A DNA stretch of 53,376 nt from Bacilli bacterium (GCA_023268805.1 JALRKT010000005.1:2413-55788); one strand, 5' to 3'; positions 2,793 to 37,588 are shown, numbered from the stretch's first letter. Numbers and translations are program-made. Notes: generated from the sequence alone by a model not told the origin.

Positions 2793-4163
2793 ATGGTGAA
2801 TGCAACCTTATCGGAAATTGCCCAAATTTGGGAACGTGTATTGGATCGTTTGAGCCAAAAGATTAACGATCGCCATATTTTTGATTCTTTTTTTGCTGAT
2901 TCTTACATTCACACGATTCAAAACGATGAAATTGTTGTGGTGGTTAACTCGGGCCTCGCTGTTAATTTATTAAATACGCGCTATTTAGATATGGTGAGTC
3001 AAACTGTTCTTGATGTCACTCAATCTAATTTTAAACTTAAATTTGTTCAAAAGAGTGAACTTGAAAAAATTCCTGTCAATAAACCTCAAAAATCAAGCTT
3101 CTTTGCTAATTCCTTCGTTAACCGCAAATTTACGTTTGATAATTTTGTCGTTGGGACATCCAATCGAGAAGCCTATCAAGCCGCGTTACTCATTGCTTCA
3201 AATCCAGGAAAATTATTCAACTACAACCCACTTTTTATTTATTCCCAATCGGGTTTAGGTAAAACGCACTTACTCCACGCGATTGGTAATTACATCAAAG
3301 AAAATGCGTCTGCATTAAATGTTCTTTACATCACCACGGATGATTTTGTTGATGAATTCATCAAATATGTAAGTGGTGAAAAAGACAAAGATAACATGAA
3401 GGATTTCTTCAAAAACGTAGATGTCCTCATGGTGGATGATATTCAATTTTTAGCAGAGAAAACAAAAACCGAAGAAATGTTTTTTTACATCTTCAATAAC
3501 CTTGTCAATGACGGAAAGCAAATCATCTTAACGAGCGATCGGCATCCGAGTGAAATTCGTGGCATTGAAAGTCGCCTTGTTTCTCGCTTCAATTCAGGGT
3601 TAACCATGAATATTTTAGTGCCTGATTTATCCACCCGAGTCGCCATTCTTAAGAATAAAATTCAAGCCAATGGTTTGGATATTACGTATTTCGAGGAAGA
3701 TGTTCTTGATTTCTTCGCAGAACGCTTTTCCAACAACGTGCGTGAGCTTGAAGGGGCACTCAATCGTTTGTTATTTTATGTGATTAATATCAAACAAACT
3801 AAACACATTACCATGGAACTCGCGATGGAATCCGTTCAACCGTTAATGGGATCGAGCTCACCTACCAGTTCTTTAACCGAAACTCGCATAATTAATACGG
3901 TGGCAGACTACTATAACTTAACTTCTAACCAGATTACGGGTCGTATTCGTACAAATCAAATTGCCATGGCCCGCCATATCGCCATGTACCTCATTCGTAC
4001 CTTACTCGATATGCCCTTTTTGAAGATTGGAAGTTTATTCGGTGGCAAGGATCATTCCACGGTGATGAACGCGGTGTCAAAAGTGGAAAAATCGTTGAAA
4101 GTTGACAGTGCGATTGCGACCGCTGTCCAACAACTCAACCAACGCTTAAAAAAGATTGCTTAA
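2793..4163 (+). CDS. dnaA: Chromosomal replication initiator DnaA (start moved to ATG 2793)
   Basis: YNPLFIYSQSGLGKTHLL Walker A, DDIQF Walker B, NVRELEGAL, GGKDHSTV; the ORF-track extension 2634-2792 runs through DnaA boxes. Confidence 0.97.
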   Translation: MVNATLSEIAQIWERVLDRLSQKINDRHIFDSFFADSYIHTIQNDEIVVVVNSGLAVNLLNTRYLDMVSQTVLDVTQSNFKLKFVQKSELEKIPVNKPQKSSFFANSFVNRKFTFDNFVVGTSNREAYQAALLIASNPGKLFNYNPLFIYSQSGLGKTHLLHAIGNYIKENASALNVLYITTDDFVDEFIKYVSGEKDKDNMKDFFKNVDVLMVDDIQFLAEKTKTEEMFFYIFNNLVNDGKQIILTSDRHPSEIRGIESRLVSRFNSGLTMNILVPDLSTRVAILKNKIQANGLDITYFEEDVLDFFAERFSNNVRELEGALNRLLFYVINIKQTKHITMELAMESVQPLMGSSSPTSSLTETRIINTVADYYNLTSNQITGRIRTNQIAMARHIAMYLIRTLLDMPFLKIGSLFGGKDHSTVMNAVSKVEKSLKVDSAIATAVQQLNQRLKKIA

Positions 4164-12572: not shown

Positions 12573-13027
12573 TCGAACATAACGACGCTCATTGGATGAA
12601 TTTAGCACTTGAAGAAGCTCGCAAAGCCGCTTTTTTGGGGGAAGTTCCTGTGGGTGCCGTTTTAGTCCATCACAATACATTGCTCGCCCAAGCGCATAAC
12701 ACAAGGGAAACAACCCAACAAATTTCGGGACATGCTGAAATTAAGGTGCTTGAAAAAGCGGGTGAAGGGATTCAATCATGGCGTTTACCAGAAACAACCC
12801 TTTATGTCACGGTAGAACCGTGCTTGATGTGCGTAGGTGCTATTCTTCAAGCCCGTGTTCGACGGGTCGTCTTTGGGGTAAGGGAACCTAAATCAGGGAG
12901 TTTAGTATCAAATCTTCAACTTCTAAAAATCCCTAACACGCCTAAGGTTGAGATTACCGAAGGAATTCTTTCTTCGGAATGTCGATCATTAATGAAATCA
13001 TTTTTCGGAGTTCAACGTGAAAGCTAG
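12569..13027 (+). CDS. tadA: tRNA adenosine(34) deaminase (start ATG 12569, ATGA overlap with serS)
   Basis: EVPVGAV, HAE, YVTVEPCLMC zinc motif. Confidence 0.92.
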   Translation: MIEHNDAHWMNLALEEARKAAFLGEVPVGAVLVHHNTLLAQAHNTRETTQQISGHAEIKVLEKAGEGIQSWRLPETTLYVTVEPCLMCVGAILQARVRRVVFGVREPKSGSLVSNLQLLKIPNTPKVEITEGILSSECRSLMKSFFGVQRES

Positions 13028-14036
13028 ATGGCGTTTATTGTTTGTGGTTTTTATGGTGGGATGCACACCTACTTCGCCAACGAGTAACTTAAACAATTCA
13101 AGTGTGTTGACAAGCATTCCTCAACCCGATGATTTTGACAAAAACCGCGATGGAAAAACTGTTTTGATAGAATTGAATAAGTCGATTAACTTTTCACGTG
13201 AAAACAACAATGTGGGTGATTTTGTTCGCCTCTTCCCGGAAAACTATCGTGAGACAGAGGATGTCTGGGTACCCTATGCAACCGCAGAAGGGCCGGCGCT
13301 TGATCCTACATTTACAACCCGTGTTTGGACGGAAAATGAGTGGGACACAACCATAGCTCAACTCACCTCTCCTACTCAAGAAGCTTTTTTAGCGTTGTTA
13401 CAATCCTGGTTACCCTTTGATGATGTCTTTGTGTACCGTGAAGAAGTTGTGAATTTTAAAGATTTGAGTCACGAATTTTATGGTGGCGATTATTATTGGT
13501 TTAATAACCATATCGACACGTACACCACACGGTACGCACGGATGGATAACCAATTCATAACGGGTCGAGCAGAGGTACAAAGAACCTTTCAAACATTGAA
13601 CGAAATCTCGTTTGAACGCCTTCATGATGTGCAATTCAACGATGACACTATTTTTTCCTTGCAGGATGAAACTTTCCCCGCTGGCTATTTTGGGGCGGTT
13701 GATCAAAAATTAATGACGCCACGCGCCGGAAACAACACGAAGCATGCCTTGTCGTTAGGACCGGCTCGTTATTTATTAGACACCCTTGCCTATTGGGATT
13801 ATTTGATTCAAATGAGTCAGTCGGATAACACGATTAGTCCATATGCCCTTCAATTTACGTTTCAAAAACTTGCCGATGATGATCTTAATTTGCAATTTAA
13901 TATCACACAACCGCTCGAATCCTTACGCACAGAGGAGTATTATGAACATGTTGTTGACGTTCAAATACGTCAACGAGAATGGGTCGCATTCCATGAAGCC
14001 TCGTATCTATGGCTTGCTGACCATAGTGAGGGATAA
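13017..14036 (+). CDS. Uncharacterised lipoprotein
   Basis: 339-aa ORF overlapping the tadA end; signal peptide with lipobox MVGC followed by a S/T/P/N-rich linker. Confidence 0.75.
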   Translation: MKARWRLLFVVFMVGCTPTSPTSNLNNSSVLTSIPQPDDFDKNRDGKTVLIELNKSINFSRENNNVGDFVRLFPENYRETEDVWVPYATAEGPALDPTFTTRVWTENEWDTTIAQLTSPTQEAFLALLQSWLPFDDVFVYREEVVNFKDLSHEFYGGDYYWFNNHIDTYTTRYARMDNQFITGRAEVQRTFQTLNEISFERLHDVQFNDDTIFSLQDETFPAGYFGAVDQKLMTPRAGNNTKHALSLGPARYLLDTLAYWDYLIQMSQSDNTISPYALQFTFQKLADDDLNLQFNITQPLESLRTEEYYEHVVDVQIRQREWVAFHEASYLWLADHSEG

Positions 14037-31852: not shown

Positions 31853-31887
31853 TGTGAAACCTCAAGACTAAGTATAATATGAGCAAG

Positions 31888-32640
31888 ATGCATCTTAAAG
31901 TTCTTTCCCTTAATGTTCGCATTGATGTTCCGGTGGATGGGGTAAATCAATGGTCCTTTCGGCGTGATGCCATTCTTCAATATATTCAAACGCAACAACC
32001 GGATATTTGTTTTTTTCAAGAAGCGAACGCTTCGATGTACGCTTATCTTTCAGAACATCTCTCAGATTATGAAAGTGTTTATACTGGTAGGGATGCCAAC
32101 CGTCTTGGGGAGGGCTGCCCTATTTTTTTTAAAAAGAATCGTTTTGCCAGGGTGAGTGGGTATACGTTTTGGTTGTCGCATCATCCCCAAACCCCAGGTT
32201 CGATGGATGAAGAGGAAGGGTTTCCTCGGATCGCCACCCATCTTCGTTTAATGACTCAAGAAAAAAACACCATATCGTTTTTGAACACGCATCTTGCTTA
32301 TCGCTCTAAACGAAATCAAGATTTAAATTTGAAAGTACTTTTCGATTTTGTTCAATCCTTGCCAGTGGGTGAACCCCTCATCTTGGGTGGAGATTTCAAT
32401 ATGGAACGCTCCATCATTCAACCCTATAAACCAAGAAACCTTCATTTTGCTGGCGAATTCAATCATGATAAAACGTATCATGAGTTCCGTGGCGGAGAAG
32501 GCATCGCTCAAATCGACCATCTTTTACACTCTGATGTGGAAGAAGTGAATTTTCAGATTGATCAACGTCCCTTTTTAAATCGACAGTTATCAGACCATTA
32601 TCCTGTGATTGGAGAATTTCAAATATATGCCAACGCTTAA
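31888..32640 (+). CDS. Endonuclease/exonuclease/phosphatase (EEP) family protein
   Basis: SLNVR, PDICFFQE, TFWLS, NTHL, GGDFN, IDH, SDHYPV; start 31879 or 31888. Confidence 0.9.
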   Translation: MHLKVLSLNVRIDVPVDGVNQWSFRRDAILQYIQTQQPDICFFQEANASMYAYLSEHLSDYESVYTGRDANRLGEGCPIFFKKNRFARVSGYTFWLSHHPQTPGSMDEEEGFPRIATHLRLMTQEKNTISFLNTHLAYRSKRNQDLNLKVLFDFVQSLPVGEPLILGGDFNMERSIIQPYKPRNLHFAGEFNHDKTYHEFRGGEGIAQIDHLLHSDVEEVNFQIDQRPFLNRQLSDHYPVIGEFQIYANA

Positions 32641-33985
32641 TCGCCGCTTTAGAGGAACGTGTATTGACTACACCCACGATGGAAAAGGGGTGTTTAAGAT
32701 CGACCAACTTCCTGTTTTTATTGAGAATATTCTTGTCGGTGAGGAAGCCGATATTTTAATTACCAATCATCGTGGAAAATATGCAGAAGGACGCATAGAA
32801 AAGCGTTACACAACCTCATCTCAACGCGTGATACCACCCTGCCCATTTTATGAAGCATGTGGCGGGTGTCAAATTCAGCATTTATCGTATTCTGAACAAT
32901 TGAAAATGAAAAAAAGCCGTGTGGCAGAAGTGTTGCGACGGATGGGAGACTACAACGGAAAAGTAATGGACATTATCCCAAGTGAAATTCCTTTTCAGTA
33001 TCGAAATAAAGTTCAATTTCCTTTTGGTAAAAATGATAAGGGTGAATTAATCACAGGACTTTATCGTAAAGGAACACATCAAATTATCGACATTGATCAA
33101 TGTCTAATCGAACAAGCCGATGCCGATCAAATTGTTCAAGCGGTTAAAGCGTTTTGTATCGAACATCACCTTGAACCTTATGATCAAAAATATAAAAAAG
33201 GATTTTTACGCCATGTGATGGTGCGCAAAGCGACCGCTACAGGGGAGGTCATGGTCGTCCTTGTCACCGGCAAAGTGAACTTTCCTCAAAAACATGCTTT
33301 TGTCGAAGACCTTCAAAACAAATTCCCTCAAATTAAAACGATCATTCAAAACATTAATCCAGAGTTTACTGATGTGGTCTTGGGGTATCGCGAACACATC
33401 CTTTTTGGCCCAGGTTTTATTGAAGATGTTTTGGGTGGGTTACGCTTTAAAATTGCGGCTAAATCGTTTTACCAAGTGAATCCTGTTCAAACCGAAAAGC
33501 TTTATGCTAAAGCACTTGAATTAGCGAATATTCAAGCCACGGATTTGGTGTTAGATGCTTATTCAGGTGTAGGCACGATGACATTACTTGCTGCCCAACG
33601 TGCCAAACATGTCACTGGCGTAGAAATTGTCAAAGATGCGGTCATCAATGCGATTGAAAATGCGAAAGCAAATCACATTAAAAACGTTTCCTTTATTGAA
33701 GCCGATGCCGCACCCTATATGGTGGAGCGTACTTCCAAAGGTAAACAGTATGATGTGGTCATTGTCGATCCCCCACGACAAGGTTGTAGCACTGAGTTTT
33801 TAAATGCCTTAAAAATAATGAAGCCGAAACGATTTGTGTATGTTTCGTGTGAACCTTCTTCACTTGCGAGAGATATTAAAATACTCAGCGATTTTTATGA
33901 AGTAAAAGTGGTACAACCCGTTGATATGTTTTCTCAGACTTATCATGTGGAGACGGTGGTGTTGCTTGAGTTAAAAAACCGATAA
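32627..33985 (+). CDS. rlmD: 23S rRNA m5U1939 methyltransferase RlmD/RumA
   Basis: TRAM domain, CPFYEACGGC Fe-S motif, SFYQVN, DAYSGVG, DPPR, YVSC, VDMFSQTYHVE. Confidence 0.95.
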   Translation: MPTLNRRFRGTCIDYTHDGKGVFKIDQLPVFIENILVGEEADILITNHRGKYAEGRIEKRYTTSSQRVIPPCPFYEACGGCQIQHLSYSEQLKMKKSRVAEVLRRMGDYNGKVMDIIPSEIPFQYRNKVQFPFGKNDKGELITGLYRKGTHQIIDIDQCLIEQADADQIVQAVKAFCIEHHLEPYDQKYKKGFLRHVMVRKATATGEVMVVLVTGKVNFPQKHAFVEDLQNKFPQIKTIIQNINPEFTDVVLGYREHILFGPGFIEDVLGGLRFKIAAKSFYQVNPVQTEKLYAKALELANIQATDLVLDAYSGVGTMTLLAAQRAKHVTGVEIVKDAVINAIENAKANHIKNVSFIEADAAPYMVERTSKGKQYDVVIVDPPRQGCSTEFLNALKIMKPKRFVYVSCEPSSLARDIKILSDFYEVKVVQPVDMFSQTYHVETVVLLELKNR

Positions 33986-34071
33986 ATAAAGGGTTTTAGG
34001 ATATGTTCCCTGTTTCAACCCTTCGTTAAAACTCCTATCTTACTCGTGTTTTTTATTCAATCAAAAAATCG

Positions 34072-34088
34072 TTGTCTGTGGGAACATA
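34072..34088 (+). repeat. 17-bp direct repeat, copy 1 (TTGTCTGTGGGAACATA)
   Basis: 16/17 identical to 36563-36579; its 3' part is the inverted complement of TATGTTCCC at 34002-34010. Confidence 0.85.
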
Positions 34089-34309
34089 TTAAATAGCGAA
34101 AATAGGTTAATCTTTTAAGTGGTTTGTGAAGGTGAGCATATAAATCTAATGTTGTTCACTTTTTGGCTTACGTAAAACAAACCTATAAGCATTTGGAAAT
34201 ATTAATTAGCTGATTAATAATGACTTTACAATTTCTATTTATATTAGACAATTTAAAATTGAATTAACGATAGATTAATGTTAAAGTTAATAAAAATTGG
34301 GGAAATTGT

Positions 34310-35743
34310 GTGAAAAAATTTATTATTTTATTGTTTTCATTTTTGGTGTTAATACCAATCAAACCATTACCTGTAGATGCAGCAAACTTAATGATTTTGG
34401 ATGATCTAGGAACTTATGAGCAAGTTAGACCAGTCATGCAAACAGTCAAGGTAAATATTACTGCCGATATGGTTAGCAATATTCGAGCAACGGGGACAAA
34501 TGTGGTAACTGTAGAAACAAAACATTATTTTCTGTGGTTTTATACACACTCTACATATCAATACTATTACCTAACGGATATGTTCGTAGATCAAGTAGTA
34601 CAAACTAGAACTTTAAAAAATGATATTGACTCATTAATATTTGTAATTCAAGAGCTTGAGTATTTTACATCTATCTACGACAGTTGCAAAGGACAAGAGG
34701 CTACCGATTGTATTTTGGGCTTTGTTCGATCTATAAATAAGAATTATGTTGGAACTACCACTGAACTTGATATTTATAAAGCAGATGGTGTTTTTGATAA
34801 ATGGCTTGTAACATTGGGGCCAATTAATACCGATTTTGTAAGGTTTGTTGATACTAAAGATGGAAGTTTATTAGGTATTTCTGAATATTTTTCTAGTTTT
34901 GTTAAGGTTGGGGATTACAATGATAAAGTTCATCCAGTATTAACAAAAACCCCTATATTTAATGGCGGGTTGATTGATCCGTTTAATACAAGTGGAAGAA
35001 TAGATTTAACACATTTTTTTGCAAGCATGGACGGTATTTATAATCATACATCGGCTACTATTGATATTGGTTTGAGAAATTATGGGGATCAATTATCATG
35101 GGGTGGTGATTTACAAACTTTCGCACAAGAGCTACATAGCAAATCGCAAAATCTTAGCGTCATTGAAAACGAAATACTATCCTGGAACCCTTATGATAAT
35201 AGGCAACGTGATTTTTGTACGATTATAGGACTTAACAAATGCAGTTTTTCAAATAGTGACATGTTAGCTGACATTGATGCCAATAATGTTATGAGAGGAC
35301 TTATTAATAATGCTCCTGTCCCAATTTCCACTTACATTAACGGAATTACATACACTACATACCTTTACAATGACTTGAACAAACTTAGTGTTGCACTAGC
35401 AGGTTATTATAATGTTGTTAAATATGACAATAGTTATTTTCCAAATCGCTATTTAATGTTTATAAAAACTATCGGATTAAATGATGGAATGCAAACTATA
35501 ACTTCCACCAATCAACTTAGAGATAGAGTTTATAGAATGCTTAAAGTACAATACAATTCAACTGGAAATACAGATATGGGATTAGATTGGTATTCTGGAT
35601 TTAAAAACCTAGATTACTTAATGTGTATAGGTGGAAACCCAAATAACCCATTGGTAGACCTTAGATATCGTGAAATTGCCGCCAAATTGTTCTATGAATA
35701 CGTTATTCATATGAGTACAAAGCCAGCATACTATGGTTCATAA
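34310..35743 (+). CDS. Secreted hypothetical protein with DxxH...WxGDL...DxxxDxD motif set
   Basis: Signal peptide MKKFIILLF...VDA; motifs IDLTHFFASMDG, SWGGDLQT, SDMLADIDANN; AT-rich codons. Confidence 0.75.
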   Translation: MKKFIILLFSFLVLIPIKPLPVDAANLMILDDLGTYEQVRPVMQTVKVNITADMVSNIRATGTNVVTVETKHYFLWFYTHSTYQYYYLTDMFVDQVVQTRTLKNDIDSLIFVIQELEYFTSIYDSCKGQEATDCILGFVRSINKNYVGTTTELDIYKADGVFDKWLVTLGPINTDFVRFVDTKDGSLLGISEYFSSFVKVGDYNDKVHPVLTKTPIFNGGLIDPFNTSGRIDLTHFFASMDGIYNHTSATIDIGLRNYGDQLSWGGDLQTFAQELHSKSQNLSVIENEILSWNPYDNRQRDFCTIIGLNKCSFSNSDMLADIDANNVMRGLINNAPVPISTYINGITYTTYLYNDLNKLSVALAGYYNVVKYDNSYFPNRYLMFIKTIGLNDGMQTITSTNQLRDRVYRMLKVQYNSTGNTDMGLDWYSGFKNLDYLMCIGGNPNNPLVDLRYREIAAKLFYEYVIHMSTKPAYYGS

Positions 35744-36518
35744 CAATGCGTTTTCCCGGATAAAAATTTTTTTTCTATTGGTAATCCTATTCGATTTATT
35801 ACTAACTAGTTGTGTCGCCGGGAATCGTTATCAAAGCACAACATTGATAGTGGGGCCAATGGACTATAACTCAAACTACTACACTGAGAATGAGTTACTT
35901 TTTACATTGTTAGAATTCGATAAAGAAACTACCCTTGGTTTTGGGACAAGATACCGTACGGTCACTGAAGAGAATCAAACGTTAGGCTGGGCCATGTTAG
36001 ATGAAAAATATAGTCCTGAAGTTTATATTTATTCCGAAGATACTATTGACGAAATCACTTCAAAAATTAAAGACAGTTATTCAATCATTCACGAATATGT
36101 TAATCCGTACCCAGGAGGCACTGGTTTATTGAGTTCATTTATAAACTCTAAATTAATTTTTAATGATTCAAAAGGGGTGACTTTTACTTTTGATGTATAT
36201 GGAGGAGAAGTTGATTATTGCTCATGCAAAGCGGTGGTTCGCATGAACAAAATTATCTTCAGTATGGAAGAAGGTTATTTTGTTCCGGACATAATCAATT
36301 TTGTCGAATTCTTTTCTAACTCGAATGATTTTATTTCTTGGATGGATACTTTTTACAATCGGAGATTAATCGAGGGAGAATACTTGATTACATACTTGGG
36401 GTATGATTTCACAATTAATATCCCGAATAATTTTGATATCAGCATTTACCAAAGTTTATTAGGTAGTGGTTTTGATCCAATAAAATATTTTGATATTATA
36501 ATTACTAATCAAAACTAA
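35733..36518 (+). CDS. Hypothetical acidic lipoprotein
   Basis: Hydrophobic N-terminus with lipobox LTSC; overlaps the upstream gene by 11 nt. Confidence 0.7.
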   Translation: MVHNNAFSRIKIFFLLVILFDLLLTSCVAGNRYQSTTLIVGPMDYNSNYYTENELLFTLLEFDKETTLGFGTRYRTVTEENQTLGWAMLDEKYSPEVYIYSEDTIDEITSKIKDSYSIIHEYVNPYPGGTGLLSSFINSKLIFNDSKGVTFTFDVYGGEVDYCSCKAVVRMNKIIFSMEEGYFVPDIINFVEFFSNSNDFISWMDTFYNRRLIEGEYLITYLGYDFTINIPNNFDISIYQSLLGSGFDPIKYFDIIITNQN

Positions 36519-36562
36519 GGCTATAAATATGTTTCTCGACATCATCGAAAGTAGACTTAACT

Positions 36563-36579
36563 TTGTATGTGGGAACATA
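36563..36579 (+). repeat. 17-bp direct repeat, copy 2 (TTGTATGTGGGAACATA)
   Basis: 16/17 identical to 34072-34088; forms an imperfect inverted repeat with TATGTTTCTC at 36528. Confidence 0.85.
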
Positions 36580-36649
36580 AATGCCCCTAAAAATATGTTA
36601 CTTTACGCGTTTCAAGGCAAATTTTTCGAGCAATCGGGGAGTTTCAACG

Positions 36650-36688
36650 CACGTAGAAACCTGTGTATTGCTTCATTTAAAAGCATAA
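36650..36688 (+). pseudogene. Displaced rlmD 3' fragment (attR-like)
   Basis: CAC GTA GAA ACC TGT GTA TTG CTT CAT TTA AAA GCA TAA = HVETCVLLHLKA*. Confidence 0.85.
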
Positions 36689-36732: not shown

Positions 36733-37512
36733 ATGCTTCTCCATAGTGTCCAAATCAAAGAATCGCAGAAAGACGTATTCCCATTTCACTTATCGTTTAT
36801 GAATCAAAAGATTATTTTTCGTCGTGAAGTGACGGTACTCATTGGTGAAAACGGTTCTGGCAAGTCCACATTGCTCGATTTAATGTCGCGAGAATTAAAT
36901 TTGTTTCGTATTGGAACGCCCATCCTTGATTTACCGACGATGAATATGGATTTAAGTTACCCTTTAACCAAACCCAAAGGTATTTATTTTTCGTCTGAAG
37001 ATTTTACCACCTATATTCACGAGATTGAAAGGGAAAAGAGGAGCGCGGCTGTGGAAATAGAAAGGGTTCAAATCGAGTATAAAAATCGTTCCCTTCTAGC
37101 ACAAAAACTTGCTTCCATGCCGCATCATCGCACCTTATCAGAGTTGACGAATCTCCACGATCGCGATTTACTTAAATCTTCTCACGGAGAAGCCTATCTA
37201 TCGTTTTTTAAATCAAGGATGAGAAAGAATCAACTCATGTTATTGGATGAACCAGAAACACCGTTGTCCTTTCAAAATCAATTAGTCTTACTGCTTTTGA
37301 TGAAAGAAGCGGTTAAGCAAGGGTGTCAACTCATTGTCGCCACCCATTCTCCCATTGTGATGTCCTATCCTAACGCATCGATTTTTGAAATTACAAAAAA
37401 AGGTTTGTCTGAGAAAAAGGTTGAAGAAGTTGAAAACATTTCGTTAATGAAACAATTTCTAAATCACCCGGAAGCCTTTTTGCATCATTTATTCAGCGAA
37501 CCCAATGAATAA
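36733..37512 (+). CDS. Stand-alone ABC/AAA-type ATPase (COG3910-like)
   Basis: GENGSGKST Walker A, SHGE signature, LLDEPE Walker B, ATHSP H-loop. Confidence 0.88.
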   Translation: MLLHSVQIKESQKDVFPFHLSFMNQKIIFRREVTVLIGENGSGKSTLLDLMSRELNLFRIGTPILDLPTMNMDLSYPLTKPKGIYFSSEDFTTYIHEIEREKRSAAVEIERVQIEYKNRSLLAQKLASMPHHRTLSELTNLHDRDLLKSSHGEAYLSFFKSRMRKNQLMLLDEPETPLSFQNQLVLLLLMKEAVKQGCQLIVATHSPIVMSYPNASIFEITKKGLSEKKVEEVENISLMKQFLNHPEAFLHHLFSEPNE

Positions 37513-37588
37513 GGCACATCATCGCTTTGTTTAGGGGTTTTGTTGTATTTCGTGGTGAGAAATCTATAATAGCGTTGAGGATAATAAT

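Follow-up and report, generated by a model that had tools for sequence, protein, structure and literature searches.

The stretch of DNA considered here, referred to as the window, spans 53,376 nucleotides of a Bacilli bacterium (GCA_023268805.1 JALRKT010000005.1:2413-55788) and carries on its plus strand rlmD (32609..33985), the gene encoding the 23S rRNA U1939 methyltransferase, followed by a 2.7-kb islet that ends in a second rlmD tail. The product of 32609-33985 passes the RlmD/RumA equivalog cut-off of TIGR00479 (475.1 bits versus 183.55, with positions 22-448 of 458 aligned) and matches PF05958 at 4e-24. It terminates in HVETVVLLELKNR (within ...DMFSQTYHVETVVLLELKNR), the first tail, at 33944-33985, reading CAT GTG GAG ACG GTG GTG TTG CTT GAG TTA AAA (AAC CGA TAA). 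The second tail, at 36650-36688, reads CAC GTA GAA ACC TGT GTA TTG CTT CAT TTA AAA GCA TAA and encodes HVETCVLLHLKA*; the core-to-core spacing of the two tails is 2706 nt, or 902 codons, so that the frame is identical, and the open frame ahead of the second tail comprises only 35 codons. An earlier note on this DNA had described two in-frame tails about 2.7 kb apart, separated by AT-richer DNA with two genes and no integrase, and this description holds: both tails lie where they had been placed, the GC content of 33986-36649 is 32.0 %, as compared with 39.9 % for rlmD, 38.2 % for the ATPase gene further downstream and 40.6 % for the window, and the only two open reading frames (ORFs) of the interval, 34310-35743 and 35733-36518, are free of recombinase domains. 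The distance of about 30 kb from oriC given in the same note is fair when a dnaA domain (window ~3120-3608) is used as a stand-in for oriC.

The resemblance of the second tail to RlmD C-termini was assessed with an 11-residue position matrix built from the last 11 conserved residues of the RlmD proteins of 27 relatives, the window's own protein being excluded. In a six-frame translation of the 985-kb genome, the real tail scores 38.4 bits and the second tail 29.9, the third-ranked score being 19.9. Of 30 random genomes generated with a Markov-2 model, none reaches 29.9, their highest scores lying between 12.4 and 24.8. In addition, an HMMER profile of RlmD tails ranks the second tail 2nd genome-wide, and the significant similarity to RlmD on which the proposal of a displaced tail depended is thereby confirmed. 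A third tail-like match in the same genome (HFETVVVCTLK* on contig C66, 18.2 bits) was rejected, as it lies in a broken frame and inside the null range.

The islet, designated cassette A, is flanked by two copies of an 11-nt core, CAYGTNGARAC, encoding H-V-E-T. The left copy (33944..33954, plus strand) is attL and contains the exchange point, with CA at 33944-33945 as the candidate crossover dinucleotide; this assignment draws on the junction alignment of the window with the metagenome contig L067 and the genome G007, on the boundary of a related cassette (cassette B) in two hosts and on dyad geometry. The cassette-borne replacement tail, or P' arm (33946..33985, plus strand), encodes (H)VETVVLLELKNR*, contains the conserved RTTGCTT and, starting at 33953, shows no difference between the window and L067. 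The gene rlmD is thus a hybrid of a host body and a cassette-supplied tail, as judged from the TIGR00479 and PF05958 matches and from the shift in identity to L067. A motif scan located left-end repeats of TATGTT[ACT]C at 34001..34090 (plus strand), one forward at core+58 and one reverse (TGTGGGAACATAT) at core+137. The right arm, or P arm (36521..36649, plus strand), carries the same motif at -122 (forward), -78 (reverse) and -56 (forward), followed by CTTTAC-N6-CAAGG-N11-AGCAAT-N15, and is kept across cassettes with different cargo. The right core copy (attR) and the displaced native rlmD tail occupy 36650..36688 (plus strand), as indicated by the tail matrix and by the collapse of identity to L067 at this point.

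The cargo of cassette A consists of two genes on the plus strand. The first (34310..35743) encodes a 477-aa protein with a signal-peptide-like N-terminus, which has ten homologues among 5.8 billion proteins, nine of them labelled PF27189, a family named YkzU in the ESM Atlas. Its AlphaFold2 model is poor (mean pLDDT, the model's own confidence score, of 60.3 with a 9-sequence alignment), and Foldseek against the PDB returned nothing at E <= 0.001. The second gene (35733..36518) encodes a 261-aa putative lipoprotein with an LLTSC lipobox read from the sequence, for which a protein search yielded only three homologues, every one at least 85 % identical. Local Pfam, PHROGs, PADLOC and NCBIfam scans gave no match for either cargo protein, and hence no recombinase or transfer domain, and both genes are absent from all 17 other genomes of the genus. 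Cassette A with its flanks was found in 20 runs of 10 studies (estuary, lagoon and seawater metagenomes), 15 of which are possibly the source of the window DNA and are thus not independent. In run X19, a contig tracks rlmD to 33967 and then enters yet another tail (...LLSLKEFNA*), a contig matches 36625-36682 with five differences before passing into unrelated DNA, and the depth of the right part of the islet is 15-24 as compared with 4-5 for the window flanks, so that the islet apparently occurs in other backgrounds there.

The metagenome contig L067 represents a different species of the same genus: its proteins are 50 % (the endonuclease/exonuclease/phosphatase-family (EEP) protein encoded upstream of rlmD) and 74 % (RlmD) identical to those of the window, and it carries both cargo genes at 99 % identity. 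At the DNA level, rlmD matches at 865/1203 positions (71.9 %, to 33943) and the islet (33953-36649) at 2664/2697 (98.8 %), while past the second tail the two sequences are unalignable. The islet of L067 likewise measures 2706 nt core to core, and its displaced tail, HVETILLLTLKNS*, differs from that of the window. An empty site is found in G007 (locus L010), which matches L067 6827-9646 at 94.3 % and L067 12341-13066 at 97.2 %, the two alignments abutting with a 12-nt overlap at the core, and in which rlmD continues uninterrupted into ...HVETILLLTLKNN*; relative to G007, the insertion in L067 is precise, with no host bases lost. A third genome, G003, matches the left side of L067 at 97 % and breaks at the same point, continuing into another tail (HVESITLLSLK*) and different cargo, and its second contig shows a right arm followed by the displaced tail and right flank of L067. 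One narrow clade therefore presents three states of the same site: empty in G007, cassette A in L067 and cassette B in G003. Taken together, these alignments indicate an insertion whose limits are fixed to within 11 nt and which has spread horizontally as a unit, and they bear out the earlier distinction between a replacement tail and a displaced native one, the unit being followed by a different native tail in L067 and the gene being uninterrupted in G007. The comparison of empty and differently occupied sites among relatives, which had been proposed in the earlier note, yields an empty site in G007 and other cargo elsewhere, but no empty site for the window's own lineage, as in G009, its closest relative, a different tail and a 141-aa ORF occupy this position and the ATPase gene is missing too.

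Cassette A belongs to a family with shared ends. The genomes of the genus are fragmentary metagenome-assembled genomes (MAGs) with a completeness of 63-93 %, a kind of assembly in which binning often misses mobile elements; displaced tails or right arms were detected in six of the 18 (G000, G001, G003, G012, G014 and G017). A tail-matrix scan of every fetched locus revealed displaced tails 3' of rlmD in G017, G001 and G014, with core-to-core distances of 1178, 1904 and 1840 nt, respectively, and pattern searches added G003 and G012, with one site per genome and no match for a control pattern. When a longer pattern was applied to 401 genomes of the order, matches were confined to genus members. 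At least four cargo sets lie behind the same ends, namely the YkzU-family protein and lipoprotein of cassette A, a single 355-aa gene of the PF00144 (beta-lactamase/penicillin-binding) family in the 1.2-kb cassette of G017 (locus L015, 2857-3924), in G001 and G014 a helix-turn-helix regulator accompanied by an uncharacterised 316-aa protein, and in cassette B an ArsR regulator together with a P-type ATPase. Every cargo gene is co-oriented with rlmD, and none encodes a recombinase. The variable cassette slot envisaged in the earlier note is thus supported by the six genomes with a cassette end and by the diversity of the cargo.

The common left end of these cassettes is a spare tail of about 30 nt, ACRGTGGYRTTGCTT...TTAAAR-stop, which is shared by the P' arms of five cassettes, while the common right end extends over 65-130 nt and terminates in CTTTAC-N6-CAARG-N10/11-AGCAAT-N15-CAYGT. 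Copies of TATGTT[ACT]C, which has a genome-wide background of 0.11 per kb, occupy fixed offsets, at -56, -78 (reversed) and -121/-122 on the right and at +58 and either +137 (cassette A) or +170 (cassette B) on the left, the reverse copy at +170 being present in cassette B of both G003 and G035. The latter genome belongs to another family, and between G003 and G035 the identity is 289/500 before the core and 496/508 after it. Folding of the right arm as an attC-like hairpin was not supported, with compensatory changes at none of the 16 pairs of the consensus fold and an energy of -2.6 kcal/mol.

If the right arm, the core and the left arm are contiguous, the sequence has the appearance expected of an unintegrated site or of a junction between tandem elements. 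A pattern demanding this joined arrangement was searched for in IMG/VR and gave 11 matches at nine places, the chance estimate being below 0.1. All 11 loci also contain the motif repeats and a tail ending in ...LK(TA)*, neither of which was demanded by the pattern. At six of the 11, a gene encoding a large serine recombinase (LSR) of 572-591 aa lies on the opposite strand 0.25-0.7 kb from the site; this att-adjacent LSR matches the phrog_95 integrase at 1e-124 and is accompanied by Ant-like, repressor-like and tyrosine-integrase genes. Five of the records are classed in IMG/VR as provirus (G415 and G419) or linear (three), and G415 is 92 % complete according to CheckV. The arm of the window is related to the right arm at each of the 11 loci (64-73 % identity over 63-99 nt), the similarity always ending at the core. 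For cassette B the correspondence is closer, as its left arm matches that of G417 at 94.9 % over 234 nt, stopping about 15 nt before the LSR stop codon, and cassette B itself occurs in the virus contig G416 at 99.9 % over 735 nt with a right arm ahead of it. Provirus G415 has a pair of att sites separated by 3039 nt, between which lie two co-oriented ORFs but no recombinase gene, and its LSR gene adjoins them; here a 3-kb LSR-less cassette is carried in tandem by an element with its own integrase. The occurrence of joined arms in virus contigs with an LSR, together with the available portions of the rumA literature (PMC4120198, PMC4701971), lend weight to the link to serine integrases that the earlier note had drawn. 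A third, degenerate core-like site (HVETIVTTYF*) is also present in G415 (locus L249, ~3052, minus strand), 131 nt past the second att site toward the LSR gene.

The right-arm pattern alone was a poor guide to viral contigs, since its 29 matches are close to the chance estimate, only one of them (G414) being a real arm. The right arm of that contig is 93.5 % identical to the window's over 46 nt and 81 % over 67 nt, and the contig also encodes an LSR pair and an ArsR regulator with a P-type ATPase. It was nevertheless set aside as a candidate rlmD-site element, as the DNA that follows the arm does not resemble rlmD and a left end was not detected, and 80 viral loci related to its LSR contain neither rlmD nor an arm. 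Tandem LSR pairs were also rejected as rlmD-site elements because they are not located beside rlmD in five genomes of the same family.

The point at which the left arm of cassette B stops in the G417 alignment looks as if an LSR gene had been deleted once, and CIMEs (cis-mobilizable elements) are said to arise by such decay in the available part of PMC5704250, which raises the question of whether a larger element with an integrase decayed at this position and left the islet as its stump, a stump that was never mobile as a 2.7-kb unit. This explanation is extremely improbable, as the same 2706-nt unit with the same limits is found at 98.8 % identity in a species whose rlmD is only 72 % identical, so that decay would be needed identically twice, and no recombinase pseudogene occurs within the islet; a single ancestral decay followed by spread would merely restate the interpretation of a mobile cassette. 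Of the two origins offered in the earlier note, a non-autonomous cargo islet mobilized in trans consequently fits better than a remnant decayed in place, because the unit has moved intact between species.

A process without any site-specific enzyme must also be considered, in which transformation followed by homologous or homology-facilitated illegitimate recombination, anchored in the rlmD 3' end, would leave the tail duplication as a by-product. No recombinase was found in the genus MAGs, and the whole rlmD-to-DUF4287 interval differs among G000, G009 and G010, with more indels downstream, as such a process would have it. On the other hand, the right boundary is as sharp as the left and lies at the same 11-nt core in two hosts; because their right flanks are unrelated, there is no homology to anchor the right crossover. 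Non-coding arms of 65-130 nt are kept across unrelated cargo, the same arms are joined beside integrase genes, and the insertion in L067 is precise with respect to G007. Recombination of this kind is therefore considered very unlikely to account for the islet.

The alignments place the exchange point within CAYGTNGARAC. When L067 is compared with the empty site, the exchange could have taken place anywhere in GAAACG if the CATGTT of attR is element-derived, or at CA if it is the host's own. For cassette B, the identity between two unrelated hosts begins at the third base of the His codon, which places its crossover at or before CA. The hexamers AGCAAT (-21..-16) and RTTGCT (+18..+23) are inverted around the C of CAY and span about 45-50 bp, which we take to be the size of LSR attP sites; as the joined-arm pattern demanded both hexamers, the virus hits are not independent evidence for them. 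The central dinucleotide of serine integrases must be non-palindromic, and CA of the His codon is the probable crossover dinucleotide, because it is invariant in every site, non-palindromic and centred between the two hexamers. According to the available part of PMC4120198, serine-recombinase elements (vanG and ICE-r) insert in five species after GA in the 11th codon (GAG) from the rumA 3' end. The 11th codon from the end of the window's rlmD is also GAG (33950-33952), inside the core and 6 nt downstream of the proposed CA.

Several features of the site suit a tyrosine recombinase better, be it a Xer-sized enzyme of the genus or an unseen lambda-type integrase, with TATGTT[ACT]C copies serving as arm sites and a 7-nt YGTNGAR overlap. 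The motif copies keep their offsets in different cassettes (-56, -78, -121/-122 and +137 or +170), and this explanation would give them a role; variation in the core is limited to three wobble positions in the 7-nt stretch between the invariant CA and AC, exactly what heteroduplex resolution gives, so that the wobble mosaic is better accounted for. Tyrosine recombinases of Xer size number three in most genus genomes (about 294, 309-321 and 286-338 aa), whereas a resolvase domain occurs in none, and G415 and G417 also encode a 305-306-aa tyrosine integrase two genes from the LSR. However, it is the LSR gene that lies 0.25-0.7 kb from the joined arms in six of the 11 loci of autonomous relatives, the inverted hexamers fit the size assumed for LSR attP sites, no arm-binding integrase is located near any cassette, and the published rumA-targeting elements consulted, as far as covered by the available parts of PMC4701971 and PMC4120198, use serine integrases. 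Servicing of the cassettes by a tyrosine recombinase is thus regarded as unlikely, although less so than the enzyme-free and decay explanations.

Some observations weigh against an LSR as the enzyme that moved cassette A. At its three wobble positions, the core of attL does not agree with that of attR, nor do two copies that are otherwise 98.8 % identical agree with each other, so that a single fixed 2-bp crossover accounts for the pattern only with a few additional substitutions. If the crossover took place at CA, the left arms of these two copies of cassette A would have to differ at two wobble positions within their first 7 nt, which is somewhat unlikely. A long right arm with motifs at fixed offsets is, to our knowledge, not a need of LSR sites and is more like the arm sites of tyrosine integrases. 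The left side of the window resembles the LSR elements in the tail of about 30 nt only, and cassette A itself was found in no virus contig. Furthermore, PF00239 and PF07508 are absent from the window's genome (90.7 % complete), and PF00239 is absent from all 18 genus genomes, so that no cognate LSR is seen in the host lineage. Finally, among the contigs of four runs none joins 33953 to 36650, and neither a circle junction nor a restored site was detected, which says nothing on their absence. A stricter joined-arm pattern fitted to the tail of cassette A also gave no match in viral contigs.

The search for LSRs recommended in the earlier note thus returned none in the window's genome or the genus, and its statement that the islet lacks an integrase extends further, as none was found in the islet, in the 55.8-kb contig or in the 13 flanking ORFs of L067. 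The five PF00589 matches of the genome all lie on other contigs, and the window's contig has no tyrosine recombinase. A 418-aa tyrosine integrase on contig C30 was dismissed as the mover, as its neighbour is an RHS-like fragment and the contig, 3 kb in length, has no cassette motifs; C30 (L003) has long ORFs on both strands, which suggest a different composition, and it may be mis-binned. In the order as a whole, the LSR-type domain PF07508 is common (144 of 301 genomes), and two loci from genomes of the same family (L092 and L104) have a convergent LSR gene of about 580 aa directly after rlmD. A helper in this lineage is therefore putative, none of the 18 genus genomes having yielded a serine recombinase.

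On balance, window 33946-36651 is probably a 2.7-kb non-autonomous integrative cassette serviced by an LSR element, either in trans or via tandem co-excision. The cassette consists of a short left arm with a substitute RlmD C-terminus, two co-oriented cargo genes and a right arm of about 130 nt. It probably entered by conservative site-specific recombination in the H-V-E-T codons, which lie 11-13 codons before the rlmD terminus, and it has left the gene intact and the native tail stranded 2706 nt downstream. Its arms probably correspond to the two halves of the attachment site of LSR-carrying prophage-like elements. Because the cassette has no recombinase of its own and its arms match those att halves, an LSR element of this kind is presumed to integrate it, excise it and carry it between hosts, acting in trans or by tandem insertion at the same site followed by co-excision, with tandem arrays as the putative vehicle.

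By its organization, the cassette would operationally count as a CIME, a class defined in the available text of PMC5704250 by the retention of attL and attR and the absence of integration and transfer genes. As in the CIMEs of streptococci, attL and attR flank the element at the 3' end of a conserved gene, and relatives are found next to elements with an integrase in tandem arrays (G415 and G416, both virus contigs), although no tandem is present in the window. The cassettes differ from CIMEs in being very small (1.2-2.7 kb), with at least four cargo types on one set of ends, and in having autonomous relatives that are phage-like (provirus class, with Ant-like and repressor-like genes) rather than integrative and conjugative elements (ICEs) or integrative and mobilizable elements, in an uncultured host with a genome of about 1 Mb.

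The staphylococcal cassette chromosome (SCC) integrates at the 3' end of rlmH (orfX) by means of the CcrAB or CcrC large serine recombinases, which also act in trans on pseudo-SCC elements that lack ccr. The similarity to the cassettes described here includes the last codons of an rRNA methyltransferase gene as the target, the gene being left intact, a large serine recombinase (presumed in the present case), the coexistence of recombinase-less and recombinase-bearing elements with the same end repeats, and tandem composites. In contrast, the present target is rlmD and not rlmH, the cassettes are far smaller, and the att-adjacent LSRs are single genes (572-591 aa) that are not Ccr; even for the pair in G414, the best NCBIfam match, CcrB, reaches 131-132 bits versus a cut-off of 900.

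The closest precedent in terms of target is provided by the rumA ICEs, vanG and ICE-r elements of streptococci, Roseburia and Clostridioides, which, judging from the available parts of PMC4701971 and PMC4120198, use the same rumA/rlmD stretch, exchange the 3' end of the gene and implicate a serine recombinase. PMC4701971, in its available part, places the recombinase gene at the right end, co-oriented with rumA and with attR inside it, and describes an exchange that alters the reading frame, whereas the LSR gene of the present autonomous relatives is at the left end, convergent and 0.25-0.7 kb from the site, and the tail is an in-frame look-alike. The right-end serine integrase gene enclosing attR that is the hallmark of rumA ICEs is not found in the cassette, which has no integrase. 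Both rlmD and rum are listed among recurrent integration hotspots in the available text of PMC13651849. Integron cassettes, finally, are also small and recombinase-less, with co-oriented cargo and a common recombination site at one chromosomal position, and are exchanged among hosts. The present cassettes, however, have no adjacent intI or attC-like hairpin, for which reason they do not qualify as integron cassettes on sequence grounds; moreover, they carry both phage-type att halves and rebuild the end of the host gene. No description of minimal cassettes of this kind at rlmD was found in the literature searched, a limited search that cannot show that none exists.

On the host-side flank, outside the cassette, lies an orphan accessory gene for a 259-aa ATPase with Pfam matches to AAA_15/AAA_21 (36733..37512, plus strand). 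It is absent from all 17 other genus genomes, its best relative among 300 genomes of the order is 31 % identical, and its PADLOC matches (mad3, AriA and PtuA) are only partial; homology of G009 to the window resumes only at 37561. The rlmD-to-ATPase interval named for comparison in the earlier note is thus bordered on one side by a gene that is itself accessory. Upstream, the EEP gene (window 31879-32640) overlaps the start of rlmD by 32 nt, and this pair is kept throughout the genus, while in L067 a heliorhodopsin gene (PF18761, 7e-80) lies just past the cassette site (12918-13703, minus strand). In another family, locus L047 (G028:C3, 992-5180) comprises an rlmD paralogue, a 572-aa ORF without a family match and, about 2.7 kb downstream, a 70-codon rlmD C-terminal fragment with two stops, which looks like a similar displaced-tail arrangement. 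A 106-aa rlmD C-terminal fragment is also found at locus L048 (G036:C29, 4618-4938), with AbiE-like genes on one side and a type I restriction-modification operon on the other; the intact rlmD of that genome is located elsewhere.

The locus offers an unusually clean natural record of the movement of genes without a mobility function of their own, as it shows the unit in two species alongside an empty site and other occupants. The logic of rRNA-methyltransferase tails, known from SCCmec at rlmH and from streptococcal rumA, is extended by this record to minimal cassettes in environmental bacteria with genomes of about 1 Mb, and it links such cassettes to phage serine integrases. What is new in comparison with the known cases is the tiny size, the presence of at least four cargo types on one pair of ends, the in-frame rebuilt tail, the phage-like autonomous relatives and the uncultured host. 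The conserved arms constitute a searchable signature for more cassettes and cargo, and the paired attB/attP sequences with their candidate integrases could possibly become new site-specific integration tools. A broader view, put forward tentatively, is that in this uncultured lineage of estuarine and marine waters the rlmD 3' end might be a true cassette platform, at which temperate LSR phages would shuttle a pool of tiny cassettes across species and families via tandem arrays. It is conceivable, though doubtful as yet, that the members of such a pool, each with both att halves and a spare RlmD tail, bring in surface proteins, a beta-lactamase-family protein, regulators and metal pumps, and the TATGTT[ACT]C repeats could perhaps, with no greater assurance, bind an accessory factor new to serine integrases. 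If this view were true, the rlmD tail would represent an SCC-like or integron-like gene-capture system run by phages.

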